In this document: positions 3,189-54,775 of the stretch, in pieces
Position numbering within the stretch: the first letter of the stretch is position 1
Layout: each line of letters opens with the position of its first letter
DNA from: an uncultured Myxococcales bacterium
GTDB taxonomy: Bacteria > Myxococcota_A > UBA9042
Direction of reading: 5' to 3'
NCBI GenBank assembly: GCA_903919145.1
Contig: CAIXGW010000016.1
Coordinates: 113,367-177,366, forward strand
Length of the DNA stretch: 64,000 nucleotides
The notes under the pieces: generated by a model
Told to the model about the DNA's origin: nothing
The model's database searches: none
Seen by the model: the letters and a program-made list of their open reading frames with translations, nothing else
Position numbers and translations under genes: made by a program

Positions 3189-3255
3189 CAACGCCCGGCA
3201 GTGCCGCCGAAAAACGCAACAGGCCGACCTCATTGCTGAGACCGGCCTGCTGTTG

Positions 3256-3331
3256 GGTGGCTGGGGGGGGACTTGAACCCTCGACCTAGCGATTATGAGT
3301 CGCTCGCTCTAACCAGCTGAGCTACCCAGCC
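3256..3331 (-). tRNA. tRNA-Met (anticodon CAT; elongator-type, G1-C72 paired; could alternatively be tRNA-Ile2/lysidine)
   Basis: Reverse complement reads GGCTGGGTAGCTCAGCTGGTTAGAGCGAGCGACTCATAATCGCTAGGTCGAGGGTTCAAGTCCCCCCCAGCCACC. This gives a cloverleaf with D-loop AGCTGGTTAGAGC, anticodon loop CTCATAA and T-loop GGTTCAAGTCC. CCA is not encoded. Confidence 0.85.
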
Positions 3332-3383
3332 ACCGGAGCGCAACCAGCAGACGACGCGAAGTCGCAGCTGGAATGCGATCGAT

Positions 3384-37631: not shown

Positions 37632-38405
37632 GTGACTGCTTGGGCCGCATTGATGGCACAGGCCCGCCAGCTGGGGCTGAGTTGCCCTGCGCCCACCGCC
37701 GAATGGCTTGAGCGCTGGCCGTGTGACCTCAGCGACCGGATGGCCGCGCTGCTGGCGGACGGCTGGCCCCAGGCGGCGCTTGAGCTTGGAAGTTCTACAG
37801 TTTTTGGTGATCCGGCGCAGCTGGTCGCTGGCCTGGGCACCGACTGGCCGCCGCATTTGCTGCCGCTGGCCCGCCGCGGTGCCGAAGCGCTGGGCTGGGA
37901 CGCCAGGCTGGACCGGGTGATGGTGCTGAGCACTGGACAGCTCCGCTGCGAATACCCTAGCCTGGATGAATGGTTGACTCTTGTCACGGCCTGGCTACAG
38001 CTGGCAGGAAGGGCGCCGCTGGCCCAGGCTGGGGCGTGGACGGCGGTGGACTCCAAGACGTGGGCGCGCCTGGCCCAGGGGCTGCCTGCGGCGCTGCTGC
38101 AGAGCTGGACGCTGACCGCCACCGCAGGAGCCGAGCAGGTGGCCGAGCGGCTGCGCCAAGAGCGGCGGCAGGCCCTGGCTACTGCGCGTTGGGCAGGAGT
38201 TGTGGTGGGCGTGGCGCCGCTTGGCGGCTGGTTTCTTGGGGCTGCCCAGGACCCGCCACAGCCGGCGCTGGCCGCGGGGCTGGCGGCGCTGGTGGTGGGC
38301 GGCGCGCCGACCCTGCTGATGGGCCAGGCGATGAAGAGGGCCCGCCAACTGACGGTACAGTTGCAGCAAGTGCAGGACCTGGATCGGCCGCCGGCCAGGG
38401 ACTGA
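37632..38405 (+). CDS. hypothetical protein with C-terminal TM helices
   Basis: 257 aa, protein-like composition, no recognisable motif. Confidence 0.4.
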   Translation: MTAWAALMAQARQLGLSCPAPTAEWLERWPCDLSDRMAALLADGWPQAALELGSSTVFGDPAQLVAGLGTDWPPHLLPLARRGAEALGWDARLDRVMVLSTGQLRCEYPSLDEWLTLVTAWLQLAGRAPLAQAGAWTAVDSKTWARLAQGLPAALLQSWTLTATAGAEQVAERLRQERRQALATARWAGVVVGVAPLGGWFLGAAQDPPQPALAAGLAALVVGGAPTLLMGQAMKRARQLTVQLQQVQDLDRPPARD

Positions 38406-38436
38406 GCAGCCCCCCCGAAGGCCCCTTGGAGGAAGC

Positions 38437-41400
38437 ATGACCCGGTGGATCTCTATGGCAGCAGTGGGGTTGTTGGCAGTAGCGACAACGGCGGCTGCGA
38501 CTGCGGCCCTGGCGACCGGCCACGAGCAGCTACCGGGGACGTGGCGCGAAGTGCGCCGCCAAGTCGAGGGGCAGCGCGCCGACGTGTGGCTGGATCTGCC
38601 AGCCGGCTGGTTTGGGCCCCAGGGTCTGGACGAGCTGCACCTGGAGGCCCTGCAGCGCCGCTATCTGGCCGTCATCGGCGAGCCACCAGAGCAGAGCCTG
38701 CCGGTGCACGCACCCTGGCTGGGGGCTGGCTATGTCCTGGAAAGTCAGCAACAGCCTGGGGATCTGGACCGGCCGCCGGCCCTGCCGGATCAGGTGCGCC
38801 ACGTGGAGTTGTGGGGGCGCTTGCCTCAGCGGGTGTCGCGGCTGGCTGTGCGGCCGGGGCAGTGGACGCGGCTGGTGCAGCTGGTGGCGGACCCCGAGCC
38901 AGTACCGCGCCGACCTTGGGAAAAGCCGCTGCCGGCGGCGCCGGTGGCATCGACCCTGGATGGCGACACGCTGCCCACCCAGGGCAAAGGCTTTCTGAGC
39001 GGCAAGACGGTCTACCTCAGCCCAGGCCATGGCTTTACCTGGACGCAGAACCTGAACCGTTGGGCGACCCAGCGGGGCAACACCCACAACTTGGTAGAGG
39101 ATTTGCTCAACGCTGAGGCAGCCTTTCACTACCTGGTGCCCATGCTGCGCAACGCCGGCGCCCAGGTTGTCACGATGCGCGAGCGCGACCTCAACAGCGC
39201 CGAAGCTGTGGTCGACGACGCCAGCGCCAAGGCCGCCAACGGCAGTGGCTACTCGGAGATCAGCGGCAACTGGCAGGCCGGCACCATCCCCGGCTTTGCC
39301 GCAAAGGCCACGGTGCAGGGCAGCGACAATCCCTTTGTGTTGGGCAGCTATCGGGCCGCCAAGGCCACCGCCGGTGTCGCGACCGCCGCTGCTCAGTTTG
39401 TCCCGTCTGTTCCCACCACCGGGCGCTACGCCGTCTACGTCACTTGGACCGCCAGCGCCAACCGGGTGCCCGACGCCCACTATGAAGTCCGCCACCTGGG
39501 CGGCAGCAGCCATGTGCGCCTGGACCAGACCAAGCACGGCGGCACCTGGGCATGGCTGGGCTATTTCAGTTTTGCCGCGGGCGTCGACCCCAGCAAGGGC
39601 TCGATCGTCTTGCACAATGACACCCTGAGCGGGCTTGCCGACCGCTACGTCATCGCCGACGCTGTGCGCTTTGGCGGCGGCATGGGCAGCGTGGAGCGCG
39701 GCACTGGCAAGCCTCCGGCGGCCGGACCCAATTCTGGTAGGCCGCGCTGGGAAGAAAGTTGCAGGACGTACGCACAGTTTTCTGGAGCACCGTCTTCGGT
39801 GTGGGACTACTCTTCGGACGACCCCAGCGACGACGTCTCCTGCCGCAGCCGCATGGCCGCCTGGCACCACGAAGAGGGCGAGGACGCGATCTTTCTGAGC
39901 TGGCACACCAACGCCCCGTCGCCGGCCCGCGGCACTTCGACCTATGTCTATGGCCCCAACGCTCCCGATGGAAGCTACGACTTCACCGGTACCAAGGGGT
40001 CTGACGCTTTTGGCAAGCTGGTGCAGAAAGTCATGGTGGCCGACATCAAGGCCCTGTGGGACCCGGCTTGGAAGGACCGTGGCGTCTACACCGCCTACTT
40101 TGGCGAGATCAATCCCAAGCACAACAATGAGATGCCTTCCGCCCTGGTCGAGGCGGCCTTTCACTCGACCAAGGAGGACGCCGACCAGCTGCGCGAGCCG
40201 CGCTTTCGCCACCTGCTGGCCCGCTCGCTGTACAAGGCCATTGCCCAGTACTTTGCCGACCGCGACAAGGTGCCGCTGCAGCTGCTGCCAGAGCCGCCCC
40301 AGGCCGTGCAGATGGTGCGGACCGCCGCGGGGACGGCCCAGGTACAGTGGCAGCCGGGACCGACGGGCAGCGTCTACGGCCAGGCGCCCACCAGCTACCT
40401 GGTGCAATTGTCTAAGGATGGTCTTGGTTTTGACGAGGGTACCCCTGCGACGGGCACCAGCGTTGTGGTACCGCTGCCGGCGGGCGCCCAGCCGCTGTTT
40501 GCCCGGGTGGTGGCCATCAATCTTGGCGGGGCGAGCCTGCCGTCGGCGGTGGTGGGCGCGGTCGAGGGCTGTGCCGGCGCGCCGCGGGCCTTGGCGGTGC
40601 AGGGCTTTACGCGCCTGGACTCGGCCCTGGCCCCGGTGGACGACCTGAGCGCCTACTCTCTGGCCAGTGTCCAGCGGCTGCGCCAGAGCAAGATGAACAC
40701 CTATGACTATCTGGTCGCCCACGTCCAGGGCCTGGCGGCTGCGGGGCTGGGCGTCGACAGCGCCGAGAGGCTGGCGGTGACCCCGGCGCTGCTGGCGGGC
40801 CACGCGCTGGTCGACTGGGCGGCGGGAGAAAACTCAAGCATTGAAGGGATCTTTGATGCAGCCGCCAAGCAGGCCATGACCGATTGGCTGCAGGGCGGCA
40901 GCGGCCGCAGCTGGTGGCTCAACGGCGCCGAGGTTCTATGGACGCTGGAAGCCAAAGGCGGCCCGGCAGGCGGCGACTGGCTGGAGACCTGGTTTGGCGC
41001 GCGCTATGGCAGCGATGACGCGGGGATCTACACAGTGCAGGGCGCGGCAGGCATCGCCGGGTCGTGGAACTTTGACGATGGCACCGGTGCGGCGTACCAC
41101 GTCGACTTCCCCGATGTGCTATTGCCCAAGGCTTCGGCAACTATATTGAACTACGCCAGCGGCAAGGGGGTGGCGGCGACGCTGAACCAGCTGCCCAACA
41201 AGTCCAACGCCTTGCTGCTGGGTGTGCCGCTGGAAACGGTCTATCCGCTGCCGGCCCGCCAGGAGCTATTTGCCAAGCTGGTGGCAGCGTCTCTGCCGAC
41301 CACCACCTGCCCGGGCGGCACCGGCGCGGACGCGGGGTCCACGGACGCCGCCGCCGACGTGGGGCTCCCTGACGCCGGGGGAGACGACGCGGGGCCGGCC

Positions 41401-41730
41401 GACGGCGCAGAGTCGGATAGCACGGGTGGTTCTGACGGGACCCAGGACGACGCTGCAGGAGTCGACGGCGCCGGACCTGACGCCGGCTCTGGCGATGGCG
41501 CACCAGCAGACAGCCCTGGTGCCGACGTCGCGCCTGGGGATTTGGCCACCGTGGACGCCGCCGCCGACAGTGTCGCCAAGCCGCTCCCTGTGGCCCCCGC
41601 CCCCGTGGACGATGGCTGCCAAGCGGCGCGCCGCAGCGGGCACGGCGACGCGGCGGTGCTGCTTGGACTGCTGGCCTTGGGCACTCTGCAGGCTCGGCGG
41701 CGGCGGGTGGGGGCATGGCCCTGTGGCTGA
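38437..41730 (+). CDS. large secreted cell-wall amidase-domain protein (embedded Amidase_3 / N-acetylmuramoyl-L-alanine amidase domain) with MYXO-CTERM-like sorting tail
   Basis: 1097 aa with signal peptide. The central region SWHTNAPSPARGTSTYVYGPNAP...AFGKLVQKVMVADIKALWDPAWKDRGVYTAYFGEINPKHNNEMPSALVEAAFHSTKEDADQLREPRFRHLLARSLYKAIAQYF matches Amidase_3 (AmiC-type) motifs. There is an Asp/Gly-rich acidic region. The C-terminal ...DDGCQAARRSGHGDAAVLLGLLALGTLQARRRR is a Cys + hydrophobic + Arg cluster. Confidence 0.75.
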   Translation: MTRWISMAAVGLLAVATTAAATAALATGHEQLPGTWREVRRQVEGQRADVWLDLPAGWFGPQGLDELHLEALQRRYLAVIGEPPEQSLPVHAPWLGAGYVLESQQQPGDLDRPPALPDQVRHVELWGRLPQRVSRLAVRPGQWTRLVQLVADPEPVPRRPWEKPLPAAPVASTLDGDTLPTQGKGFLSGKTVYLSPGHGFTWTQNLNRWATQRGNTHNLVEDLLNAEAAFHYLVPMLRNAGAQVVTMRERDLNSAEAVVDDASAKAANGSGYSEISGNWQAGTIPGFAAKATVQGSDNPFVLGSYRAAKATAGVATAAAQFVPSVPTTGRYAVYVTWTASANRVPDAHYEVRHLGGSSHVRLDQTKHGGTWAWLGYFSFAAGVDPSKGSIVLHNDTLSGLADRYVIADAVRFGGGMGSVERGTGKPPAAGPNSGRPRWEESCRTYAQFSGAPSSVWDYSSDDPSDDVSCRSRMAAWHHEEGEDAIFLSWHTNAPSPARGTSTYVYGPNAPDGSYDFTGTKGSDAFGKLVQKVMVADIKALWDPAWKDRGVYTAYFGEINPKHNNEMPSALVEAAFHSTKEDADQLREPRFRHLLARSLYKAIAQYFADRDKVPLQLLPEPPQAVQMVRTAAGTAQVQWQPGPTGSVYGQAPTSYLVQLSKDGLGFDEGTPATGTSVVVPLPAGAQPLFARVVAINLGGASLPSAVVGAVEGCAGAPRALAVQGFTRLDSALAPVDDLSAYSLASVQRLRQSKMNTYDYLVAHVQGLAAAGLGVDSAERLAVTPALLAGHALVDWAAGENSSIEGIFDAAAKQAMTDWLQGGSGRSWWLNGAEVLWTLEAKGGPAGGDWLETWFGARYGSDDAGIYTVQGAAGIAGSWNFDDGTGAAYHVDFPDVLLPKASATILNYASGKGVAATLNQLPNKSNALLLGVPLETVYPLPARQELFAKLVAASLPTTTCPGGTGADAGSTDAAADVGLPDAGGDDAGPADGAESDSTGGSDGTQDDAAGVDGAGPDAGSGDGAPADSPGADVAPGDLATVDAAADSVAKPLPVAPAPVDDGCQAARRSGHGDAAVLLGLLALGTLQARRRRVGAWPCG

Positions 41731-41780
41731 AGGTGGAGCTCTGCCGGCTCTCCGCGAATTCCCCAACAGCGACAGCGATC

Positions 41781-41795
41781 TAACATTGGGTCAGG
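41781..41795 (+). repeat. solo REP-like motif copy: taacattgggtcagg
   Basis: Intergenic, 50 nt after the stop of the 38437-41730 gene. 15/15 identical to the core at 53683 and 54655. Confidence 0.6.
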
Positions 41796-42080
41796 GTATG
41801 ACGGCCACTGCCACGGTCGCATAGCCAGGGGCGTTGCCTCCATCGAGGACCAGCCAAACCCGCCTGGGATGGGCAGCCAGCTGCGACGGGGCGGCGAAGG
41901 TGGCGGGGCGGGCACAGCGTTGCACGCAGGATGCTTTCAGCCAGTAGGTCGATGCTTGGGGGTGTGCCGGGCCAAACACTAGCACTGGCGCGGAGATAAC
42001 ATAGCCTTGGGCAATGTTGGAGCGCTTGACGCTGGCCCAACGCAGGGCGCAAAATAGCCGGAATTGCCGCCGAGGTTGCC

Positions 42081-45000
42081 ATGCCTGCATCCCCTATGCC
42101 GCGTTTCCGCTCGCCGGGCTGGATACGCCGTTTGTTGCCGGCGCTGCTGGTTGTTGCCGCGGGTGGCTGTGGCTCCGACGACGCGGTTCAAGGCCTGGTG
42201 GATCAAGATGCCAGCATCGACGCGACTGCCGATAGCGCCGTGGACAGCCAGGGTAGTGGGAAGTGCTGAAAAGTAAAGGAGGACTGTCCGGCCGCAGCGG
42301 CGGCGTGCCAGGCGGCGCAGTACCACCCGAGCTTGGGCTGCCTGCTGGTGGCCGTACCTGACGGCACCATCTGCAACGACGGCAACGCCTGCACGGCCAG
42401 CGACCTGTGCCTGGCGGGAACCTGCAAGGCGGGCACCGCGGCCGACTGTGGCGACGGTGACCCCTGCACCAGCGACAGCTGCGACGGCGCCAAAGGCTGC
42501 CAGCATGGCCCCGCCGCCGACGGCACCGCCTGCTCTGACGGCGACCCGTGTACCGACGCCGACAGCTGCGCTCAGGGAAAGTGTTTGGCCGGCAAGGGCA
42601 TCTGCGGCTGCAAGTCCAACGCGGAGTGCCAAGACGACGGCAACCTCTGCAATGGCGTGCCGTACTGCGACAAGTCCAACCCTACGGCGCCCAAGTGCCT
42701 GACCAATCCGGCTACGGTGGTCTACTGCCCTGGCGGCTTTGACACAGCCTGCCTCAAGAAGGCCTGCGAACCCAGCAGCGGCACCTGCGCCCCGACGCCG
42801 ATCGAGCTGGCCGTTCAGACCTGCACAGGCGCCAACAGCTGAATCTAGATGAAGAATCAAGGCGGAGCTCCCGTGCCCAAGGTCATTGCCTGCGACGACG
42901 GCAACAAATGCAGCGACGGCGACCTGTGCAAGAACGGCAAATGCAGCGGCGAAGCCAAGAACTGCAGCGACGAGACGGCTTGTACCGCGGACACCTGTGA
43001 CCCGCTGGCTGGCTGCAAGAACTCTCCGCAGACCAGCCTGTGCGACGACCTGGACACCTGCACCGCCGACAGCTGCAGTGCGGTGGCAGGCTGCATCCAC
43101 AAGGCCCTGACCGGCGGCTGTGACGACGCCAGCCCGTGCACCAGCGGCGATACCTGCGGCGCCGGCGGCTGCATTGGCAAGCCGGTGATCTGCGATGACA
43201 AGAACCCCTGCACCGACGATTCCTGCGAAACGACAGAAGGTTGTGTGAGCCTGCCCAACGCCGCGACCTGCAGCACCGGCGAGGCCTGCGCGCCGCTGGG
43301 GCAGTGCGGCGGTGGCATTTGCGCGGCGCTGCCCCCTCCGCTGGGTATCGCCTTGGTGGACGGGGTGGGTACAGACAAGCCCGCCCAGCTGCTGGCCTAA
43401 GACCTCAATGCGGCTTGGCTGGTGGGCTCGACCTCCTCTGGCGCCAAGGGGCCGAGTGACGTGTGGCTGGTCAAGCTGGCGGCGGGCGGTGGCGTGGCCG
43501 GCGAGGTGCTGGTCGGCGCGGAAGGCGAGGAGACTGCGGCTGCGGCGGTGAGCACCGGCGGCGGTGGCGCGCTGGTGGTGGGTTCGGTCAAACCCGGGCC
43601 CCTGGGTGGGCAAGACGCCTTCTTGGTGCGCTTTGGCGCCGATGCGACGGTGGTCTGGAAGCAGGTGGCTGGCGAGGCGGCCGATGACGCTGCCCTGGCG
43701 GTGGCGCTGTTTGGCAAAGACGAGGCGTGGATTGCCGGCAGCTCGCAGCAAAAAGGGCTGACGCTGCCCTGGGTCACGCGCGTTTCGGCGGTGGGTACTG
43801 TGCTGTGGCAGAAGCCGCTGGCCGGCGCGGCCGGGGTGGCGCGGGCGGTGGCGGCAATTCCCGGTGGCGGCGCCTGGCTGGCCGGAGAGCGCCTGGATCC
43901 CGCCGGCAAGCCAGTGTGGTGGGCCGCGCGGTTGGCTGCCGACGGCAAAATCCTGTGGGAGTGCGGCCTCTCTGCGCTGACGGGCTCTGCCAACGCCGTG
44001 GTCGTAATGGCCGATGGCGGCGCGCTATTGGCCGATTGGCAGGGGGCTGGCTTTGAGGATGCGCGGGCGGCCAGGGTCGATGGCGCGGGCAAGGTCTTGT
44101 GGGACAAGCTGTTTGGCGGTGCTGGCGGCGCCTGGTTTGGCCAGCTGACCTTGGCCGAGGCGCAGACTGTGCGCTTTGCCGGCCAGCGCGAAGTCGACGG
44201 CACGTGGCACGCCTGGGTCGGAGGGCTGGACCTGGGGGGGGCAGCCGGTGTGGGACCGCACCCCGGTGCAGGCCAGCAGCGGTGGGGCCGTGACGGTCGC
44301 AGCGCTGAGCTCTGGCTACCTGACGCTGGCTGCGGGCTGGGCCGATGCGACGACCAAGGGCGGGGCAGTGCGAGTCGTCCGGGCCGACCCGTGGGGCTAT
44401 GCCACCTGCCAGGCCCAGGGCGACTGCGCCGGCAAGACCACCCAGGTGTGCGACGACGCCAATCCGTGCACCAACGACACCTGCTTTGCCCTGCTGGGCT
44501 GTTCGCACCAGCTCAACGCTTTGGCTTGCGACGACTGCAATCCTTGCACAGAGAACGACCTCTGCGACGCCGGGCAGTGCGCGGGAGACGGCCAGGGCAC
44601 CTGCGACGACGGCAACCCCTGCACCCAAGACCTGTGCAACCTCAGCGGCGGCTGCAGCCACACCCCGCTGACCGGCGGCTGCAGTGACGGCAACTTCTGT
44701 ACCCTCAAGGACCAGTGCGCAGGAGGCTTCTGCAAGCCCGGGCTGCTGGACGGCTGCGACGACAGCAATACGTGCACCGACGACAGCTGCCTGCCAAGCA
44801 AGGGCTGCCAGCATCTGCCCAACAGCAGCGACTGCCAGTCGGGCAACTGCACCTATGCCGACAGCTGCATCAAGGGGGCTTGCGTTTCTTCCGCCAAGGC
44901 GGGCTTTGTAGACCAGTGGTACGGCACGGCGGTGGCCGAGCGGCCGCGCAAGCTCGCGCAGATCGGTCAGGAGGGATTCTGGTTGGTGGGAGACAGCTAC

Positions 45001-46347
45001 GAGCTCAGCAGCGCCGACGGCTACCTGGTGCGAACGGATGCCAACGGCGCCGCCTTGTCCAAAGCGGTGGTCAAGCCCTCTTTTGGCAATTCGGTGGGCG
45101 CCGACTACCTGACCGGCGTGGTTGCCACCTCCTTTGGCGCGATGATCGCAGGCGGTACAGGCAGTTGTCAGCAGCGCGGCTGGATCTTGCGCGTCGACCC
45201 CAGCGGCAAAGAGGTGTGGTCCAAGCCCTATAGCCACGACAACGGCCACTCCTGTACGCCTGGCGCCAACACGGGATTCTTCTATGACATCGCCGATGGC
45301 CAAGACGGCAGCCGGGCCGCCGTGGGCTGGCTGCACGGCTACCCGTGGACCAATGACGTGCTGCAGGCCTGGGTGGTACGGGTCGACAAAGACGGCGTGA
45401 TGCTCACCAACAACCTCTTTCACAAGGGGGCAGCGATCTTCTATGGCGTGGCGCCCTTGGGGGGCCAAGGCTATGCCGCGGTGGGCGCCACCCAAGAGAC
45501 CACTGCGGGCGGCTGGGATGACTTGGTAAGCCAGCTTGGCGCCAATGGATCGGCGCTGTGGCACAAGAAGCTGGGCGGCACCGGCAACGACTACCTGGTC
45601 GAGGCCGAGGCTGCGCCAGACGGCGGTGTCTATGCCGCGGGACGGAGCGCCTCGGGCGGTGCGGGCAATGACGACGGCTGGGTAGTCCGCCTGGACGTTG
45701 CCGGCAATTTGCTGTGGCAGCGAACCTACGGCGGTGGCCAAAATGACGGGTTGAGCGGCATCAGTGTGATGCCCGGCGGCGGGGTGGTCGTGGCCGGCGA
45801 CACCTACAGCAAAGGCAAGGGCGGCGCGAACTTGTGGCTGGTAGGCCTGGATCCCGCTGGCAACGTGCACTGGGAGCGGGTGCAGGGCTCGGCCAGCGAC
45901 GACGTCATCCAAGCGCTGGTCCCCTTGACTGGTAGTGGCCTGGCCGCCGCTGCCTATGGCACACCGCCCAAAGCGGCGGCCCACGACTTCCGCTTGTTAG
46001 TGTTGGACAACTTTGGCCACTTCTCCTGCAGCGAAGCAGGCAGCTGTTTTGGCAAGGTGCTGGCGGAGTGCAGCGACGGCCAGGTATGCACGGCGGACGA
46101 CTGCAACGCTACCAGCGGCTGCACGGTCAGCGCGGCTACGTGGCCTTGCAGCGACGGAGACGCCTGCACCGAGAAGGAAAGCTGCCAAGGAGCCACCTGC
46201 GCGGGCGGCGGGCCCGTGGCCTGCGATGACAAGAACCCATGCACCAAGGACAATTGCGACAAGGTCAAGGGCTGCATCGCCGAACCCGTGGCCAATGGCA
46301 CCTCCTGCGGCACCGGAAAGACCTGCACTTTGGGCATCTGCAAATAG
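42081..46347 (+). pseudogene. disrupted giant lipoprotein gene (signal peptide + cysteine-rich repeats + beta-propeller-like repeats + cysteine-rich repeats), interrupted by four in-frame stops and a +1 frameshift in a G8 tract
   Basis: ORFs 42081-42269, 42333-42842, 42849-43400 and 43422-44241 are all in the same frame. They are separated only by TGA (42267), TGA (42840)/TAG (42846) and TAA (43398), with protein-like readthrough. Only the first has a signal peptide (LLVVAAGGCGS). At G8 (44234-44241) the coding frame shifts +1 into ORF 44176-46347. The repeat unit spanning the shift reads ...TWHAWVGGLDLGG|QPVWDRTP..., matching sister repeats (ANLWLVGLDPAGNVHWERV). Confidence 0.55.
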
Positions 46348-46471
46348 CGGCACGGGCCCCGCAACATGAATTCGCTGGCGTGCGCTGCCCTGCCAGGTGG
46401 GGCGCCAGGACGCCCACTGCGAATTGGGCGAACCAATCACGATCTGCTGAGAGTACAAGCGGGAGAAGGCG

Positions 46472-49208
46472 ATGAATTTCTGCATGACCAACATGGTGCC
46501 GGCCCTGCTGCTCGCTTGTGCCACCGTGGTAGTGGCCTGTACTCCTGCCAAGCTAGACGAGGCCAAGGTTACAGGCTCAGACACCACCCAGGACGTTGCG
46601 GATGCAGGGGCGACTGACGCCGCGGCCGGCAGCGACGCCGGTGCGGACGCCGGGGCCGATGCGGACGCCACCGCTGACACCGGAGTCGGTCCCGATGCAA
46701 TTTCAGGCGATTTGGCAGGGGCTTGCGGGAGTCCAGCCGATTGCCCCAAGCCAGATCAGTGTCAGCAGGCGACCTGTGTGGGGGGCCAGTGCGGCACGGC
46801 GCCCCTGGCGAGCGGCAAGTGCGACGACGGCGAGCCCTGCACCCTGGGCGACAGCTGCCAAGCCGGCGTCTGCAAGCCGGGCAGTGGCTGGGATCTGGTG
46901 GCCTGTGCCTGCCATCCCGACCCGGCCTATGCGCGCGGCTGCCCAGACGACGGCGACCTGTGCAACGGCCAGCAGGTCTGCACCAAGAACGCCAGCGGCT
47001 ATGCGTGCAAAGCCGGTCCCGTGCCCGCAGCGTGCGCCGACAGCGACTCGACCGACTGCGTGACATCGACGTACGACCCCAAGACCGGCCAGTGCGTCAA
47101 GGCCAACCTCAAGAAGGGCTCGACGTGCTCCGCCGGCTTTCCGACCGCCTGGGAGTGCGTGGTCAACCAGCAGTGCGATGGCCAGGGCAAGTGCGATTTT
47201 CAGAACAACTGCGAGTGCATGGAAGACAGCGAGTGCTCTGCCAAAGACGACGACAGCCTGTGCAACGGCAAGCTGTTCTGCAACAAGGACCCCAAGGCCA
47301 GCGGCCCCAAGTGCCAGGTCAACCCCAAGTCGGTGGTGTCTTGCAGCGCCAGCAATGACACGGCCTGCCTCAAGAACGCCTGCACCAAAGCGACCGGCAA
47401 GTGCGCGATGAGCCCGGCCGAGGGGGTCAAGCAGGTCTGCGACGACAAGTCGGGCCAGTGCTGGTGGTATCCGCTGGAGCCGACCGACGTCAAGCCGGCG
47501 CTGGTCAGCTGCAACGACGGCCTGGGCTGTACCCTCAACGACGAGTGCAAGGCCGGCAAGTGCATTGGCCAGACCGACGCCTGCGCCTGCAAGACCGACG
47601 CCGAGTGCCAGGGCATAGAGCCATGGCTGTCTCTCAACGATCGGTGCCGTGGAAAACCCTACTGCGACAAAAGCAATTCTGCCTCGCCGGTGTGCAAGCT
47701 CAACCCTGCAACGGTGCCGCAGTGCTCGGCTGGCCTGGACACGACTTGCGCCAAGAACGTCTGCGCGCCCTACAGCGGCAAGTGCGAGAGCCGGCCGCGC
47801 AGCCAGGTCTACAAGCGCAAGTGCGGCGACGATCCCGCCAAGGGCTGTTCAGAATGTGCTGACGATGACCCCAGCTGCGTATGGGCCGTCTTGCCTACCT
47901 CGCAGGCACCGTGGACGGGGTATGACAAGCTCAAGTGCGACGACGGCAACGCCTGCACCGCCAACGAGTCTTGCCTGGGCGGCCAGTGCCTCGCCACCAA
48001 TTGGCTGTGCAGCTGCGCCAAAGACGCCGACTGCGCCGACGACGACAACCTGTGCAGCGGCACGCCCTACTGCGAAAAGGCTTCGGGCAAGTGCAAGACC
48101 AACCCAGCTAGCGTGGTGGCCTGCAGCCCCGCCAATGACACCGACTGCGCCAAGAACAGCTGCGACGACCGGCAAGTGCCAGCTCAAGCCTGTGTCCGGC
48201 ACCAATGTGGCCTGCAATGACGGCGACTCCTGCACCGCGTCAGACACCTGCGAGAACGGACAGTGCGTCTCAGGCACCAACATCTGCCCGTGCAAGACCA
48301 ACTCTGACTGCGCCGCCAAAGAAGACGGCAACGTCTGCAACGGCACCCTCTACTGCGACAAGACCGCCAGCCCGCCGGCGTGCGTAGTCAACCCAGCCAC
48401 GGTGTTGACCTGCCCCAAAGGTCTGGACAACCAGTGCCGCCTCAACCTGTGCGACCCCAAATCCGGGGCCTGCCAGCTGACGCCCATCCAAGAAGGCATT
48501 GGCTGCAGCGACGGCAATCCCTGCACCGCTGGCGACGTCTGCACGGCCGGCCAGTGCTCGCCCTTGGCGTTTGTCTGCGACTGCACCAGCAATGCCGACT
48601 GCGCCAGCAAGGAAGACGACGACCTGCGCAACGGCACGCTGTTTTGCAACCAATTAAAATGCCAAGTTAATCCGGCGACGGTGGTCAAGTGCCCGGTCGG
48701 CGCCAGCAATCCTTGCGTCAGCGTGCAGTGCGACGGCAAGACCGGCCAGTGCGGCGCCAAGCCGGTGGTCGCGCTGTTCGTCCCCTGTGACGACGGCAAT
48801 CCCTGCACCAAGGGCGATACCTGCCAGGCCGGCAGCTGCAGCGCTGGCGCCAACCTCTGCACCTGCACGGCAGACAGCCAGTGCGCTGGGCTGGACGACG
48901 GTAACCCGTGCAATGGCGAGCTGTTCTGCGACCTGTCTGCCGCGCCGTTCTCCTGCAAGCCCAAGCCGGCCACCGCCATCTTGTGTGACGGCGTGGGAGA
49001 GAGCGAGTGCCAAAAGAACATCTGCGAGCTGGAGACGGCGCAGTGCAAGCTCAAGCCCATGGCCTGGCTATGCAATGACGGCAATCCCTGCACCTTGGAC
49101 GCTTGCTCGCCAGCGGGCACCTGCAGTTTTGATGCCGTCGCCGACGGTCTGAGCTGCGGCGGCACCGCCAGTTGCAAGCAAGGCCAGTGCGTGGCGCCAG
49201 AGCAGTGA
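46472..49208 (+). CDS. giant cysteine-rich repeat lipoprotein, apparently frameshifted near 48164-48170 (frame 2 46472-48175, then frame 0 to 49208)
   Basis: Lipoprotein signal MNFCMTNMVPALLLACATVVVAC. >20 repeats of type C.DG..CT.D.C..G.C / CxKNxC..xTGKC. The frame-2 ORF ends in non-repeat junk (DDRQVPAQACVRHQCGLQ*). Frame 0 picks up the repeat exactly at ...TGKCQLKPVSGTNVACNDGDSC. A single-nt indel at gacgaccggcaag restores ...CAKNSCD(D)TGKCQLKP... Confidence 0.6.
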
Positions 49209-49371
49209 GGCAAGCGACGAGCCCGCGGCGCACCGCTTGGGCCCATCCGGTCCTAGTCTTGCTGGGGTGACGTTGGGCAGGCGGCAGGCGTGCAACTTGG
49301 CGTCGGGCAGCGGCCAAGCGGTGGGTCAGCCGACAAGCTATCGTTCAAAGACAGAGTATTCGTTCGGTGCG

Positions 49372-50010
49372 CTAGGCCCCGCGCGTCAGCTCCAGCTGCA
49401 GGGGCAGGCCGTCGCGGTGCACCGCCAGCTTGAATGGTTTGCCCACCGCCACCTTGCCCACCAGCGCGTCGAACTCTGCGCGATGGCGCACCGGCTTGCC
49501 GTCCACGGCCACAATCACGTCAAAGGGCTTGAGTCCAGCGACATAGGCGGGGGTCCCCCGGGCCACGGCGCTGACGGGGACGCCCTCGCTCTCAAACGAG
49601 CCAAACCAGCAGGGCAGCCCCTTGGCCGGCGCCGGCCCAGCTGCCTTTAGCTTGCCCTCGCTGGCTTTGGCCGGGGTCTTGCCGCGCTCTGGCGTGGCGC
49701 CCTTAGCCGAAGCATATGAAGTGCAAACATTTTCTCGCCAGGTCGACTGACTCCCTGCGGGGCCGGCCTCGTGGTTGACCTCGGCCCGCGCGGCACACAG
49801 GGCTGCCCACAGCTTGGTTTCCTTGACGTTCATGCGCTCGCGGGCGGCCACCGTGCAGATGCGCGACCAGGCGCAGCTGTGCTGCAACGACAGCTTGGCC
49901 CAGGCCTTGGCGCGGATCAGCTCCAAGATCTCCAGATCGCCGGCCGAGCAGAAAGAACAAGACGGCCAAGCCAGCTCGTTGATGGGATCCTTGGCCATGG
50001 GCAACCTCAC
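49372..50010 (-). CDS. PDZ domain protein with Cys-containing N-terminal region
   Basis: C-terminal GVPVSAVARGTPAYVAGLKPFDVIVAVDGKPVRHRAEFDALVGKVAVGKPFKLAVHRDG is a PDZ fold signature. The N-terminal CSFCSAG...HSCAWSRIC has 6 Cys. Confidence 0.6.
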   Translation of the reverse strand: MRLPMAKDPINELAWPSCSFCSAGDLEILELIRAKAWAKLSLQHSCAWSRICTVAARERMNVKETKLWAALCAARAEVNHEAGPAGSQSTWRENVCTSYASAKGATPERGKTPAKASEGKLKAAGPAPAKGLPCWFGSFESEGVPVSAVARGTPAYVAGLKPFDVIVAVDGKPVRHRAEFDALVGKVAVGKPFKLAVHRDGLPLQLELTRGA

Positions 50011-50049
50011 GTCGATGCGGAGAATGGGTTTGTGGCCTGGGCGCCGCGA

Positions 50050-51678
50050 TCAGCGCTGGAGCACCGTGTCGCGCTGGCCCTGTTCGTCGTCGAGTTCTGG
50101 GTAGTCTATGGACCAGTGCAGGCCGCGCGACTCGCGTCGCTGCAGGGCCGAGGTGACTATCAGCTGGGCCACCGTGGTGATGTTGCGCAGCTCGATGAGG
50201 TCGGGGGTCAGCAGAAAACGCCAGTAGTCCTCTCGTACTTCGGTCTCGATGAGCTGCAGCCGCCGCTGGGCGCGCAGAAGCCGGCGGTTGCTGCGCACGA
50301 TGCCCACGTAGTTCCACATCAGGCGGCGAATCTCGTCCCAGCTCTGACTGACGACGACCTGCTCGTCGGGGTCGCCTGCCTGGCCGGTATCCCATTGCGG
50401 TACGCGGAGTTGGTCGGCACCGCCCCGCTCGGCCAAGACCTTGAGCGCCGTGGTGGCCGCCCGCTCGGCATAGACCACCGCCTCAAGCAGGGAGTTGGAA
50501 GCAAGGCGGTTGGCGCCGTGCAGGCCGGTGCAGCTGACTTCGCCAATGGCCAACAGCCCAAAGATGTTGGTCTCTGCGTCCCGGTTGACCTGCACCCCAC
50601 CGCACTGGTAGTGGGCACCGGGAACCACCGGAATCGGCTGGCGGCGCATGTCGATGCCCAACTCCATACAGCGGGCGTGGATGGTCGGAAAGTGCTCTTC
50701 CAGGAACGCAGCCGGCAGGTGGGTCATGTCGAGGAACACGCAGTCTTCGCCCGACGCCTTGAGCTCGGTGTCGATGGCCCGCGCCACGATATCGCGGGGG
50801 GCCAAGTCCTTGCGCGGATCGTAGCGGGGCATAAACGCCTCGCCGCGGCCATTGCGCAAGATGCCGCCTTCGCCGCGCAGCGCCTCTGAAATCAGAAAGT
50901 TCTTGGCCTGCGGGTGATACAGGCACGTCGGGTGAAACTGGAAGAACTCCATGTTGGCGACGCGCGCGCCGGCCCGCCAGGCCATGGCCAAGCCGTCGCC
51001 TGTGGCCACGTCGGGATTGGTGGTGTAGAGGTAGGTCTTGCCGGCGCCACCGGTGGCCAAGCACACCACCGCGGCACTGATGGCAACGACGCGGTTGCGC
51101 TGGATGTCCAGGGCATAGGTGCCAAGGATCTGGTCGCCCTTGCCGCCGGGGACGCCGCGACCGGTGCCTTTGGCAAAGCGCGCGCGGGTGATTAGATCGA
51201 TCGCTTGATGGTGCTCCAGCACCAAGATGTTGGGGTGGGCCAGCACTTTTTCGACCAGCGCCAGCTCAATGGCGACGCCGGTGTGGTCGGCCTGATGGGC
51301 TACCCGGCGAGCGCTGTGGCCGCCTTCGCGGGTCAGGTGCAGCTGGCCGTCCTCGCCGCGGTCAAAACTCACACCCTGGGCCATCAGCCGCCCAATGGCC
51401 GCCGGGCCGGCTTGCACGACCAGAGCCACCGCCTCCTTGCGGCACAGCCCCGCACCGGCAACCAGCGTGTCCTGAATGTGCTGCTCAATGGTGTCGTGGC
51501 TGGGATCGAGCACCGCGGCGATGCCTCCCTGCGCCCACACCGTATTGCTGTTGCTGAGCTCGCGCTTGGTGACCAGGGTGACTTGGGCCTGCTCTGCCAC
51601 CGCCAGGGCAAAACTAAGCCCCGCCACACCGCTGCCAATCACCACCACGTCGCTGGTGTGCTCCAGTGGGTCCATCAT
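50050..51678 (-). CDS. nadB: L-aspartate oxidase
   Basis: DVVVIGSGVAGLSFAL (FAD Rossmann); NTVWAQGGIAAVL (no covalent-FAD His, unlike SdhA/FrdA); RGEGGILRN; ~540 aa. Start taken at MMDPLEH. Confidence 0.85.
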   Translation of the reverse strand: MMDPLEHTSDVVVIGSGVAGLSFALAVAEQAQVTLVTKRELSNSNTVWAQGGIAAVLDPSHDTIEQHIQDTLVAGAGLCRKEAVALVVQAGPAAIGRLMAQGVSFDRGEDGQLHLTREGGHSARRVAHQADHTGVAIELALVEKVLAHPNILVLEHHQAIDLITRARFAKGTGRGVPGGKGDQILGTYALDIQRNRVVAISAAVVCLATGGAGKTYLYTTNPDVATGDGLAMAWRAGARVANMEFFQFHPTCLYHPQAKNFLISEALRGEGGILRNGRGEAFMPRYDPRKDLAPRDIVARAIDTELKASGEDCVFLDMTHLPAAFLEEHFPTIHARCMELGIDMRRQPIPVVPGAHYQCGGVQVNRDAETNIFGLLAIGEVSCTGLHGANRLASNSLLEAVVYAERAATTALKVLAERGGADQLRVPQWDTGQAGDPDEQVVVSQSWDEIRRLMWNYVGIVRSNRRLLRAQRRLQLIETEVREDYWRFLLTPDLIELRNITTVAQLIVTSALQRRESRGLHWSIDYPELDDEQGQRDTVLQR

Positions 51679-51705
51679 CAAGGTAACTCCTTGCAAGCCA
51701 TGGGG

Positions 51706-52785
51706 CTATCCGCCGATAGAGCTCATGGCCTCAGCGGTGGCCACGCGGTCAAAGCGGTGGGCATCGACCTTGCCGGCCAGCGCCTCAGCAATGGCGGCGC
51801 GGATCTCCTGGTCATTGGCGCCGCCCCGCAGCAGGTCGCGCAGGCTCAGCGCTCCGGCGGTAGATAGGCATTCGCGCAGAGTGCCAGTCGGAGAGAGCCG
51901 GACACGGTTGCAAAGTTCGCAAAATTGCTCAGTGACAGCGGCAATCAGGCCGAGCTTGACCGCCAGCTCGGGGCGGCGCCGGTGCTGGGCCAGCCAGCGC
52001 TTGGCCGGTCCGCCGCCGGGGGTACCGTCCAGGGGGGCCGGCTGCAGGTCCCAGTCGGTGACCAGCGCCTCTCTCACCGCCGCCACCGGCAAGAACGTCT
52101 GCGGGCCCCAGAAGTCGTCAACGCCAATGGGCATGTACTCAATATAGCGCAGGATCAGGTCGCGCTCGCCGGCAAAGAGGGCCAGGTCGCTCAGCTCGTC
52201 GTCGTTCAGTCCTTTGAGGACCACCGCGTTGAGCTTGGTGTGGGCAAACCCCGCCTGCTGCGCCGCGGCAATGCCATCCAGGACTGCGCCGAGCTTTCCC
52301 TGGCGCGTCAGCTGGGCAAACCGCGCCTCCTTGAGGGTGTCCAAAGATACATTGAGCCGGCTGAGCCCTGCGGCCTTGAGCGGCCCTGCCAGGGGGGCCA
52401 GCAGGTGACCGTTGGTGGTCATCGAAAGGTCTTGGATACCGGGAATCTCTGCCAGCATCGCCACCAGGTCGACGATACCGCGTCGCACCAGCGGTTCGCC
52501 GCCCGTCAGGCGGACTTTGCGCACACCCAAGGCGACAAACTGCTCCACCAAGGAGCGAATTTCCTCAAAGCTCAGCAGGCGGTCGTGGCCCACCACCGGC
52601 ACCCCGGCGGCGGGCATGCAGTAGGTGCAGCGGTAGTTGCAGCGGTCGGTCACCGAGACGCGCAAGTACTCAACCCGGCGGTGCTGCAGGTCGACCAACT
52701 TGAAAGGGTTCAGCGGCTTGGCTGGGTGAGCAGCGCCGCCGATCGTCAAGCTTTGCGGGCTGTGGCACGGGCTGGGGAGGCTCAC
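51706..52785 (-). CDS. moaA: GTP 3',8-cyclase MoaA (radical SAM, molybdenum cofactor biosynthesis)
   Basis: YLRVSVTDRCNYRCTYCMP (CxxxCxxC radical SAM), downstream GGEPLVRRGIVDL, and a C-terminal second-cluster Cys (CELCNRVRLS). N-terminal extension relative to E. coli, so the exact start is uncertain. Confidence 0.85.
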   Translation of the reverse strand: MSLPSPCHSPQSLTIGGAAHPAKPLNPFKLVDLQHRRVEYLRVSVTDRCNYRCTYCMPAAGVPVVGHDRLLSFEEIRSLVEQFVALGVRKVRLTGGEPLVRRGIVDLVAMLAEIPGIQDLSMTTNGHLLAPLAGPLKAAGLSRLNVSLDTLKEARFAQLTRQGKLGAVLDGIAAAQQAGFAHTKLNAVVLKGLNDDELSDLALFAGERDLILRYIEYMPIGVDDFWGPQTFLPVAAVREALVTDWDLQPAPLDGTPGGGPAKRWLAQHRRRPELAVKLGLIAAVTEQFCELCNRVRLSPTGTLRECLSTAGALSLRDLLRGGANDQEIRAAIAEALAGKVDAHRFDRVATAEAMSSIGG

Positions 52786-53024
52786 AGCGGCGATGCCTTC
52801 TCGACGGTGCCAATCGCGCCTTGCACCGCCAGTTCAGCCACAACGTTGTGGGCGGCGTGCTCTTCGGCGTAGTCGGCGATGACCTGGGCCTGCCCGGCCA
52901 GCACCTGCTTGAGCAGGGCCACCCGTGCCTCATGGGCGCGCTGCCCCTGGCCATGCTTTTGGACGATCCGCTCGACGCGCTCGAGCTTGGCGGCGGGAAA
53001 GGAGCTGAGTCTGACCTGGTACAT
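52782..53024 (-). CDS. small hypothetical protein (80 aa)
   Basis: ORF with high GC3 overlapping the moaA start by 4 nt (ATGA). No recognisable motif. Could be spurious. Confidence 0.3.
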   Translation of the reverse strand: MYQVRLSSFPAAKLERVERIVQKHGQGQRAHEARVALLKQVLAGQAQVIADYAEEHAAHNVVAELAVQGAIGTVEKASPL

Positions 53025-53132
53025 GGCGACCTCCGGACAGCATGATCGCCCCCGCCGCCGTCCAGGTCAACCTGCTGTCTGCAGTTGGCCCGCCCGCGGC
53101 CCGTCCTGCACTTGCGCCGGGAAGATTCGCTG

Positions 53133-53149
53133 CCTGACCCAATGTTAAC
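53133..53149 (-). repeat. 17-nt REP-like motif copy (left inverted end): gttaacattgggtcagg on the minus strand
   Basis: Exact 15-17 nt match to the copies at 54653, 53683 and 41781. Confidence 0.7.
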
Positions 53150-53351
53150 TTTTTGGTATTGCATGATTTTCTCGACATCCTTGTCGTCCAGCACTTCGGC
53201 ATCTGGCCATGCTCTGAGAATCTGAGCCAAGAGGGCTATCGGGGCATTGGCCAGAAGTGGGGAAGCGGTCCCGAAAACTAACCCTCAGCAGTACACAAAG
53301 CCAATCCCTGAGCGCTCGGACCGAGCCGAGTAGTCCTTTCGGCCAACTGCG

Positions 53352-54611
53352 CTAGTCCGGCACCGGCATCGTCCCAACCAGGGTATGTGGCGGCAGACGA
53401 AAGCGCGGCCCCGTGAGCCCCTCGAGGCTCGACCGTGCCCGCGTTCGCCATCGCTGCTTTGCCTCTGCATACGCCGCGCACACGGCTAGGTACTGCTCTT
53501 CGTATGCTATGACTTCCTTGAGGTTCGCCGACAACAGGTAGGGCATCCTCTTCTTCTTGCCGTTGCGCTTCTTTGCCTTTGGGGGGCCTTGCTCGTAGGG
53601 CATGTCGTACTCCGACTTGCGATCAGGAATGCAGACCACCTCCACCCCGGATGTCCCGAAATAACCATTTGTGTCAGGCGTATAACATTGGGTCAGGCTC
53701 TCTTGCTGCTGCTCCATGGCGAATCGCGCTGGGCCACTGAGCAGCGGGGTCTTGCGCAGCACGTGCAGCGGCACGGTCGCCACCTCGTCGGCGATCGCGC
53801 GATAGCGGAGTTGCAGCTCGCCCGGGCTGAGGTCGGCCCAGCACCGCGGCGGGCTGATCGGCAACTCCACAGTTCGCGTGTAGGCATCCAGCGGACCAGC
53901 ACCGGCCTTCAGTTGGGCGTCGCGGTAGCGTCTTGTGAGATCAATCAGTTTTCCGATCAGTGGCTTGCCATCGATCATGGGGGCGGCGCAGGAGACCCCA
54001 GGAAACTGAATTGGATGATCGACCAAGCCGGCCTTGACGCCTTGGCCGAGAATGTAGCGGATGCGCCGTCCAACCGAGACTTCATCTTGAGCGACCGCCA
54101 CCCACTTGTTTTCACACCAGAACTTCCCGTTTGAGCCAAGGCGCTCGTGAGCAAGCCGGGCCAGTCCTCCGTGAAAATGCATCAGGAATTTGCAGAACTT
54201 TCCAGAGCTCGCGATCTCGAACAGGCCGTGGTAGTGGTTGGTCATGAAATGCACGGCGACGATCTTGACTTCGTAGATGGTGGCGGCCAGAAACAACAGG
54301 CCGACGATTCTGCCGCTCAGCTCTTGATCGTTGGGGTCAAAGGCGAACTTTCCGTTGTTGGTGCGAATCGTGATTTCCTGCAGGTACTTGGGGTCGTAGT
54401 AGCGGACCAAGCTGGCGCAGCGTGGTTCAAGGAGCTTCTTGCTGTTGGCCTTGGAGTCTTGGCGAATCGCATTCATCGGGGACCGTCCACCAGTGACGTT
54501 GCAGCTGGTATAGAAGGTTTCGTCAGTTGGCGACAAAAACCGCGGCGGCTTACGCAAATTGCCGAAAGAAACTTTTGCCCGTGGTTGGCTGTCGCGATTG
54601 CGCGATCGCAC
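53352..54611 (-). CDS. IS200/IS605-family-like Y1 (HUH) transposase-like protein, long form (REP-associated tyrosine transposase candidate)
   Basis: 419 aa. Core ...KIVAVHFMTNHYHGLFEI...(HUH motif HYH)...GKFWCENKWVAVAQDEVSVGRRIRYILGQG (catalytic Tyr context resembling YIxNQ/YIxNNP). ~200-aa C-terminal extension with KKRNGKKKR. Lower GC than the flanks. Start codon uncertain (alternative Met at 54476). Confidence 0.5.
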   Translation of the reverse strand: MRSRNRDSQPRAKVSFGNLRKPPRFLSPTDETFYTSCNVTGGRSPMNAIRQDSKANSKKLLEPRCASLVRYYDPKYLQEITIRTNNGKFAFDPNDQELSGRIVGLLFLAATIYEVKIVAVHFMTNHYHGLFEIASSGKFCKFLMHFHGGLARLAHERLGSNGKFWCENKWVAVAQDEVSVGRRIRYILGQGVKAGLVDHPIQFPGVSCAAPMIDGKPLIGKLIDLTRRYRDAQLKAGAGPLDAYTRTVELPISPPRCWADLSPGELQLRYRAIADEVATVPLHVLRKTPLLSGPARFAMEQQQESLTQCYTPDTNGYFGTSGVEVVCIPDRKSEYDMPYEQGPPKAKKRNGKKKRMPYLLSANLKEVIAYEEQYLAVCAAYAEAKQRWRTRARSSLEGLTGPRFRLPPHTLVGTMPVPD

Positions 54612-54652
54612 TGCGACTCAGCGAACACGAGAATTGCCTATGGATGGAGCAC

Positions 54653-54669
54653 AGATAACATTGGGTCAG
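54653..54669 (+). repeat. 17-nt REP-like motif copy (right inverted end): gataacattgggtcagg
   Basis: Inverted relative to the 53133 copy. The following ~10 nt (ctctgttgg) also resemble the internal copy (ctctcttgc). Confidence 0.7.
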
Positions 54670-54775
54670 GCTCTGTTGGTTTTGGGAACTGGGGCGTCTT
54701 GGGCTTGCCGCCGCGCTCGCCGTGCTGTACAGCCTAGGGGCGGCCCCGGCTCGTTGGTCGCAGTGGAGGCTGGGT

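Follow-up and report, generated by a model that had tools for sequence, protein, structure and literature searches.

Bacterial pseudogenes produced by nonsense or frameshift mutations are seen as fragmented open reading frames (ORFs) and have been catalogued in many genomes. Poly-G and poly-C contingency loci of surface proteins are known from Neisseria, Haemophilus, and Campylobacter, and a run of 7 to 8 G would rank among the shorter tracts of the well-studied loci of this kind. Among myxobacteria, the TraA receptor of Myxococcus xanthus is a surface protein with cysteine-rich repeats.

The locus considered here occupies positions 42081 to 46347 of a 64,000-nt stretch of DNA (hereafter, the window), whose host is an uncultured Myxococcota-like bacterium, apparently from lake metagenomes. 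Like known pseudogenes, it is homologous to an ORF that is sense in relatives, carries multiple independent disabling lesions, retains the original frame and codon bias in its fragments, and is a large non-essential gene of an expanded surface-protein family. Nothing essential sets it apart from them; its decay would be very recent, and both an adjacent paralogue and the orthologue of a related lineage are independently broken. With contingency loci, it shares a G run inside a surface-protein coding sequence and a one-base length difference between near-identical strains. Unlike theirs, its tract is short (7 to 8 G), not conserved in the orthologue, linked to flanking single-nucleotide polymorphisms (SNPs), and placed behind three stop sites, 2.15 kb from the start of the gene, and the in-frame allele cannot restore a signal peptide–bearing protein.

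The first-pass annotation, made from the sequence alone, had proposed that one coding signal is cut here by stop codons and by a shift in a run of eight G (G8). Four ORFs on the + strand (42081–42269, 42333–42842, 42849–43400, and one beginning at 43422) all have start coordinates equal to 0 modulo 3 and are closed by in-frame TGA (42267–42269), TGA (42840–42842) followed by TAG (42846–42848), and TAA (43398–43400). The G8 run, GGGGGGGG, lies at 44234–44241, and the ORF at 44176–46347 is in the +1 frame. In a frame plot of third-position GC, the signal is unbroken from ~42230 to ~44150 at values of 0.8 to 0.9; after ~44150, it moves to the +1 frame and continues to 46347. When translated with read-through, the gene can be aligned over its full length with the locus of a related contig, L003, at 81% amino acid identity over 1,412 aligned positions. 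Together with the existence of an allele with seven G (G7) that is in frame, these observations bear out the proposal of a single coding signal. Just 5′ of the start codon, a consensus scan found a weak, putative promoter-like site, TTGACG-18-CAAAAT (42026–42055, + strand); the scan returned three sites in 7.9 kb versus 0.3 expected. Scans for Rfam families, tRNAs, and tandem repeats revealed nothing relevant to the locus.

The five fragments, all on the + strand, encode parts of what looks like one exported protein. Fragment 1 (42081–42269) contains a signal peptide, the lipobox LLVVAAGGC, and a D/A-rich linker, and closes at the first TGA, at a position occupied by K-S-C-E/Q in orthologues; an alternative reading of the changes at this site is a −2/+2 indel pair. 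Fragments 2 (42270–42842) and 3 (42849–43400) consist of cysteine-rich repeats that score 25.8 and 51.5 bits, respectively, with the Pfam family Dicty_CTDC (PF00526), whose gathering threshold of 27 bits places fragment 3 above and fragment 2 just below. Fragment 4 (43401–44240), which has no signal peptide of its own, holds the first propeller-like repeat region; its sole database match is a protein with the Pfam SBBP “Beta-propeller repeat.” The protein search that returned this weak match missed P0001, the index being lossy for a low-complexity query. Fragment 5 (44242–46347) comprises cysteine repeats, a second beta-propeller (44899–45990), and C-terminal cysteine repeats, and scores 83.6 bits with Dicty_CTDC (79.1 bits for the ORF of the G7 allele). 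As the first-pass annotation had it, the signal peptide and lipobox are confined to fragment 1, and fragments 2 to 5, composed of disulfide-rich and propeller modules, have no export signal.

The AlphaFold model of the second propeller has a pLDDT of 84 and a pTM of 0.88, and its best Foldseek match is the C-terminal beta-propeller of CylK (Protein Data Bank 7roo; E = 1e-19, TMq = 0.82). At the sequence level, NF047494 (LipL53 family lipoproteins) matched with 27.7 bits and E = 1e-6 against a curated cut-off of 400, and no match to PF06739 (SBBP) was found up to E = 5. A resemblance of the propellers to the SBBP type is thus supported at the level of the predicted fold, with weak sequence matches. 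The protein differs from SBBP proteins and CylK in setting its propellers between arrays of cysteine repeats; its sequence scores fall far short of the family cut-offs, and nothing points to an enzymatic function. Like TraA, it is a large cell-surface protein from a Myxococcota-like organism and contains repeated short disulfide modules of the C-x-D-x-N-x-C-T-x-D-x-C type. It differs in that a PA14-like variable domain was not detected, in the lack of a MYXO-CTERM tail (the protein ends in ...GKTCTLGICK), and in having an N-terminal lipobox and two beta-propellers. The ancestral protein would have been a surface lipoprotein, exported through Sec and the lipobox, made of Dicty_CTDC-type disulfide modules and two seven-blade-like beta-propellers.

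Two close relatives were available, L003 and L015, both at ~80% nucleotide identity, and one of them (L003) carries its own −2 frameshift elsewhere in the gene. The comparison with related loci suggested in the first-pass annotation was run on both and favors its view that one gene for a secreted repeat lipoprotein is in decay. L003 has sense codons at all three stop sites: its single 820-aa N-terminal ORF runs through sites 1 and 2, and the TAA at 43398–43400 corresponds to Lys AAA in the DNA alignment. L015 (P0124), which covers the N-terminal 384 aa and hence sites 1 and 2, is intact at both. Because these relatives read sense at the stop sites and retain 1,149 nt of repeat modules missing from the window, the ancestor is reconstructed as one ORF of ~1,800 aa. 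More distant homologues of 1,300 to 1,700 aa combine a signal peptide, cysteine repeats, and propellers in one chain. A scan of genome contigs with propeller 2 as query returned such distant homologues only (29 to 41% identity), the species of the window not being among them. Two metagenome contig scans with propeller 1 and the N-terminal alignment as queries gave zero matches, and exact look-up of the 699-aa protein of the G8 allele found no gene on record.

Stop site 2 (42840–42851, + strand) reads TGA ATC TAG ATG. In a three-way codon alignment with L003 and L015, it contains four window-specific substitutions (42842 C>A, 42844 G>T, 42847 G>A, and 42849 C>A) that change C-S-W-L to stop-I-stop-M. 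A templated or engineered origin of the mutation clusters at sites 1 and 2 was considered and rejected, as the intact lineages show five changes in 12 nt within the same 684-nt region. Since the clusters are not unusual and the AT-rich patches at them have no second copy within the window, we claim no special mutational mechanism. While the stops and the shift listed in the first-pass annotation stand, the list turned out to be incomplete. An in-frame deletion has removed 1,149 nt (383 codons), and its junction lies at 42899–42905 (+ strand), inside a repeated TGCGACGAC-GGC motif; the missing modules are present in both L003 and L015. A cysteine conserved in both relatives is changed to tyrosine in fragment 2 (42321–42323), and a conserved glycine of CDDGNPC is changed to cysteine in fragment 5 (44536–44538).

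At the G tract (44234–44241, + strand), the +1 shift of G8 is found in the window and L002 only. G7, which is in frame, is found in three other assemblies (L001/L004/L016, L006, and L007). L003 has AGCGGCGGG at this position, read as AGC GGC GGG CAG, with no homopolymer. Tract length is linked to the SNP at 43236 in five of five cases, with 43236G accompanying G8 (window and L002) and 43236A accompanying G7 (L001, L006, and L007); the G7 haplotype retains L003-like states at 43236 and 46058. In L001, a 974-aa ORF that opens beyond stop site 3 and lacks a signal peptide continues through the tract. Every G7 assembly carries all three of the stop sites that precede this ORF.

One possibility raised in the first-pass annotation was that the gene is intact and the stops and extra G are assembly or base-calling errors in a repetitive, high-GC region. 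The region is indeed repetitive, with a GC content of 68%, one assembly breaks within the gene at 44606–44625, and a G7/G8 difference is a classic error type. Against this, the stop-delimited 62- and 164-aa ORFs recur on 7 and 10 contigs, respectively, although some assemblies may re-assemble the same samples, so that independent observations are fewer than contigs. In L001/L004/L016, L002, L005, L006, L007, and L008, the stop-bearing region matches the window at 99.87 to 100% identity. At least seven contigs with names of their own share these stops; the names follow two styles (scaffold_N and k141_N), separate k141 assemblies are among them, and the records cite three BioSample accessions (SAMEA6872827, SAMEA6872828, and SAMEA6872832). 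Four substitutions would be needed at site 2, which is implausible as a consensus error, and the length of the tract varies in step with a SNP located 1 kb from it. The source data set was probably assembled from Illumina reads with MEGAHIT (PMC8121793; the link to this paper is drawn from the “BUCK21” label). Since housekeeping genes of the window (MetK, S9, L13, RodA, PBP2, and MreC) match Pfam families over their full length, the assembly is not generally error-ridden. Judging by this recurrence, the stop codons are real, and an artefact is barely credible. The same annotation had found slipped-strand phase variation of a surface protein at the tract the more interesting possibility; G7 would then be the “on” state and G8 the “off” state. 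Both alleles do occur naturally in otherwise ~99.98% identical DNA, the gene belongs to a surface-exposed family, and G/C runs of at least 7 are rare here (5 observed versus ~39 in shuffled sequences). However, all three stop sites precede the run, so that slippage there cannot bring back a secreted protein: the supposed “on” state would be an ORF lacking a Shine-Dalgarno motif that cannot yield the ancestral exported protein. The absence of a conserved tract in L003 and the complete length-SNP linkage, as expected of stable strain alleles, also speak against switching. Phase variation is thus very unlikely, and G8 is, as far as these alignments indicate, a late, strain-level lesion rather than a demonstrated on/off switch.

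The fragments could also be functional products, translated separately by re-initiation at the TAG-ATG or jointly by read-through of the stops. An ATG, itself derived, directly follows TAG at 42846–42851, GGAG is located 7 nt before a GTG at 42873, and dN/dS is low in all fragments (0.05 to 0.19 relative to L003), a value that fits very recent death and fragments under continuing selection alike. Yet all three stop codon types are in frame, so they cannot be put down to one reassignment or suppressor; the orthologues have ordinary sense codons there, which leaves no conserved recoding site, and L003 lacks a slippery run at the shift position, contrary to a programmed frameshift. The GGAG belongs to the ancestral coding sequence (KNQGGAP) and occurs in L003 too, fragments 2 to 5 are disulfide-rich or propeller modules that lack an export signal, and recent inactivation accounts for the low dN/dS. 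Fission or recoding is therefore highly improbable. No Shine-Dalgarno–like motif was found before 42849, 43422, or 44176, whereas such a motif precedes many genuine starts in the window; since they have neither export signals nor such motifs, fragments 2 to 5 are predicted to give no functional product.

We conclude, with a probability of roughly 0.9, that 42081–46347 is a gene that was inactivated recently, is still decaying, and derives from a single ORF of ~1,800 codons. Nonsense mutations, which account for four stop codons at three sites, and the loss of a conserved cysteine are shared across the lineage. So is the 1,149-nt in-frame loss of modules by recombination between repeats, which may predate inactivation. 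Later, in the sub-lineage of the window and L002, slippage from G7 to G8 would have added the frameshift, along with two derived amino acid changes. With no more than the first 62 codons still joined to the signal peptide, the gene is expected to yield no functional product for export at any G-tract length; we infer that it has lost its function and is not expressed. The dN/dS of ~0.1 in every fragment suggests that the decay is recent. Window-specific changes fall on the three codon positions in the ratio 15/13/35, versus 13/7/37 and 10/13/32 in the two intact lineages, which likewise points to a recent inactivation. At the level of sequence comparison, then, the locus is a plain, recent pseudogene that opens no new mechanism. 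The five ORFs at 42081–46347 should be annotated as one pseudogene and not as separate hypothetical proteins, and in-frame stops in metagenome-assembled genomes can be checked without reads by comparison of independent assemblies. The locus offers a snapshot of birth-and-death turnover in a greatly expanded cysteine-repeat/beta-propeller surface-protein family of uncultured Myxococcota-like bacteria.

Three independent knock-outs are seen in this family of giant surface lipoproteins: the stops of the window lineage, the −2 frameshift of L003, and a 5-nt deletion in the adjacent paralogue. That inactivation is adaptive and recurrent rather than neutral seems unlikely, if less so than the alternatives weighed above. 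If true, it would point to selection for shedding an exposed surface antigen or receptor (such as one that a phage or predator uses or that serves kin recognition), and the G7 tract might act as a mutational hot spot in adaptive loss. In a 16.9-kb comparison of two strains, three of four differences fall within the pseudogene, which fits neutral evolution, four being too few to test. The paralogous lipoprotein gene (46472–49208, + strand), one of the neighbors among which the first-pass annotation had seen intact copies, is itself frameshifted, so not all of them are intact. According to the frame plot and translations, it is split into ORFs 46472–48220 and 47649–49208 by the deletion, which falls between 48167 and 48168; at this point the window reads GAC G ACC and L003 reads GAC GCC AAG ACC (SCDAKTGKC). 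The split is common to at least six contigs, and these two ORFs should likewise be annotated as one pseudogene.

The ORF list and the translation of 42081–46347 agree with the first-pass annotation in placing four successive ORFs (42081–42269, 42333–42842, 42849–43400, and 43422 onward) in one common frame, separated by TGA at 42267–42269 (site 1), TGA at 42840–42842 plus TAG at 42846–42848 (site 2), and TAA at 43398–43400 (site 3). An eight-G run lies at 44234–44241, and 3′ of it the protein-like reading moves to the +1 frame, in the ORF at 44176–46347. This jump, also claimed earlier, is visible in the third-position GC plot as a single unbroken coding signal in the first frame from ~42230 to ~44150 and a clean change to the +1 frame thereafter, with signal up to 46347. 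Long antisense ORFs are also listed across the region; every homology result backs the plus strand.

A homology search identified an orthologue, P0001, with 85% amino acid identity. It is encoded on L003, a contig of a related lineage with ~80% nucleotide identity to the window and unchanged gene order. The N-terminal part of the gene is one 820-aa ORF in L003, which reads GKSCEKKEDCP at site 1, SGCSWLKNQGG at site 2, and QLLAKELNGAW (Lys, AAA) at site 3. The protein P0124, from a third relative (contig L015), is ~80% identical to both the window and L003; it covers the N-terminal 384 aa only, with sites 1 and 2 intact. The comparison of orthologous loci proposed earlier thus yields sense codons at all three stop sites in L003 and at sites 1 and 2 in L015. 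In distant homologues of 1300 to 1700 aa, the signal peptide, D/A-rich linker, cysteine repeats, propeller repeats, and C-terminal cysteine module all lie in one chain. Judged from these alignments, the ancestral state is a single long ORF.

Extra repeat modules of 1149 nt (383 codons) are present in L003 and L015 and missing from the window. Since the junction, at ~42899–42905, falls in a repeated TGCGACGAC-GGC motif, the sequences indicate an in-frame deletion through recombination between repeats. The reconstructed window protein has 1421 aa compared to ~1809 aa for its L003 equivalent, and the two are 81% identical. L003 carries a −2 frameshift of its own at ~3775 (window ~43270), which splits the orthologue into 820-aa and 1007-aa ORFs; this frameshift, known from a single Logan contig, would mean that the gene was also disrupted independently in that lineage.

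At site 1, the window reads AAG TGC TGA AAA GTA AAG, L003 reads AAG TCT TGC GAA AAG AAG, and L015 reads AAG TCC TGT CAA ACC AAG, a pattern that could reflect multiple substitutions or, alternatively, paired −2/+2 indels. Site 2 combines four window-specific changes (TGC to TGA, AGC to ATC, TGG to TAG, and CTN to ATG), which convert Cys-Ser-Trp-Leu to stop-Ile-stop-Met, and site 3 is an AAA to TAA change. The changes at sites 1 and 2 are no more tightly clustered than those of the intact lineages in the same region, and so nothing is concluded from clustering. Other altered residues are a conserved Cys to Tyr at 42321, Gly to Cys at 43962, and Gly to Cys at 44536 in a CDDGNPC motif.

The first-pass annotation had also considered assembly or basecalling errors as the source of the stops. 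Exact protein look-ups recovered the same locus in further public assemblies, where the stop-delimited ORFs recur (the 62-aa ORF on 7 contigs and the 164-aa ORF on 10). The contigs L001/L004/L016, L002, L005, L006, L007, and L008 have 99.87 to 100% DNA identity to the window over the stretches covered, and each stop site that one of them spans is present in it. The record names comprise three BioSamples (SAMEA6872827, -28, and -32) and two contig-naming styles. The “BUCK21” label suggests, by inference, that the data come from the stratified lakes of Buck et al. 2021, a dataset assembled from Illumina reads with MEGAHIT (PMC8121793). Because some samples may have been assembled more than once, the truly independent observations are fewer than the contigs, yet clearly more than one. 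Housekeeping genes of the window (MetK, S9, L13, RodA, PBP2, and MreC) have full-length domain matches, so the assembly is not generally error-prone. Assembly error as the explanation of the stops is thus effectively excluded, and comparison of assemblies proved able to replace read pile-ups. The MEGAHIT assembly ERZ27313213 is broken at window positions 44606–44625, within the cysteine-repeat array, where contigs L002 and L017 share just a 20-nt overlap; assembly at this point was probably limited by repeats or strain mixture.

Every fragment has a window-L003 dN/dS of 0.05 to 0.19 (dS ~0.8 to 0.9). In a three-way comparison, window-specific changes at codon positions 1/2/3 number 15/13/35, compared to 13/7/37 and 10/13/32 in the two intact lineages. 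Such values point to purifying selection during almost all of the window-L003 divergence and to recent inactivation. Low dN/dS would also be compatible with residual function, as expected if the locus were recoded or had undergone fission into functional fragments. This alternative is not supported, since TGA, TAG, and TAA all occur among the in-frame stops, the orthologues encode amino acids there, and no export signals accompany the downstream fragments.

Phase variation at the G tract, another earlier proposal, stands insofar as G7 and G8 alleles both exist. The window and L002 carry G8 with G at 43236, while L001/L004/L016, L006, and L007 carry the in-frame G7, which opens a 974-aa ORF, with A at 43236; tract length and this base are linked in five of five assemblies. 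Both haplotypes carry the stops, which therefore predate the haplotype split. The G7 haplotype matches L003 at 43236 (Glu/Lys) and 46058 (Val/Ala), so the window haplotype has two derived nonsynonymous changes plus the inserted G. A functional phase switch, however, fails two of three defining tests. All three stop sites precede the tract, and no signal peptide or Shine-Dalgarno–like motif was found for the 974-aa ORF; G7/G8 switching thus cannot regulate an exported protein. The homopolymer is also absent from L003, which reads AGC GGC GGG at the homologous place, making the tract particular to the window’s lineage. G/C runs of at least 7 are strongly avoided in the window (5 observed versus ~39 in shuffles, ~8-fold rarer); one of the five is the only other G8 run, at 3263–3270 within a tRNA-Met gene (3254–3332, minus strand). 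The simplest reading of G8 is a slippage mutation in an already dead gene, although the tract may be hypermutable within populations. Four differences in total separate the window from the 16.9-kb scaffold L016 (window 38201–55087): three fall within 42081–46347 (at 43236, at 46058, and in the G tract), and the fourth is at 54741. Three of four in the pseudogene fits relaxed constraint, with numbers too small for a test.

With genuine stops and sense codons in relatives, the proposed decay of a single secreted repeat-lipoprotein gene is upheld: 42081–46347 is an ordinary recent pseudogene of an uncharacterized expanded surface lipoprotein family, and the practical gain is an improved annotation of the locus. 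A possible rival reading is that an exposed surface protein was lost repeatedly because the loss was adaptive. Fragment 1 (42081–42269) encodes a basic N-region, a hydrophobic core, and a lipobox-like AGGC, at whose position L003 has VSAC and L015 has GAGC. The cysteine modules match Pfam Dicty_CTDC above threshold. The product of 44899–45990 was modeled as an all-beta structure with 26 strands (pLDDT 84, pTM 0.88), best superposed on the CylK beta-propeller (E 1e-19, TMq 0.82); sequence matches to SBBP-type propellers are weak.

The adjacent cysteine-repeat lipoprotein paralogue (46472–49208) is a second pseudogene. Five nucleotides have been deleted between 48167 and 48168 (GAC G ACC versus GAC GCC AAG ACC in L003), which breaks it into ORFs 46472–48220 and 47649–49208; the split recurs on at least six contigs, and the L003 counterpart is intact. 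The upstream gene (38437–41730) encodes a 1097-aa amidase protein with Golvesin_C and Amidase_3 domains, whose tail (…DDGCQAARRSGHGDAAVLLGLLALGTLQARRRR), as read from the sequence, resembles a MYXO-CTERM sorting signal. In assembly L005, one G is missing at 41494, in the low-complexity C-terminal region of this gene. The Somatomedin_B domain, known mainly in animal proteins, has three matches (PF01033, E 2e-10) near the C terminus of the cysteine-rich lipoprotein paralogue at 5987–8254. An uncultured Myxococcota-like organism is indicated jointly by the amidase tail, by several Ser/Thr kinases encoded in the window, and by MetK, whose nearest named relative, 74% identical, comes from a “Deltaproteobacteria bacterium” MAG.
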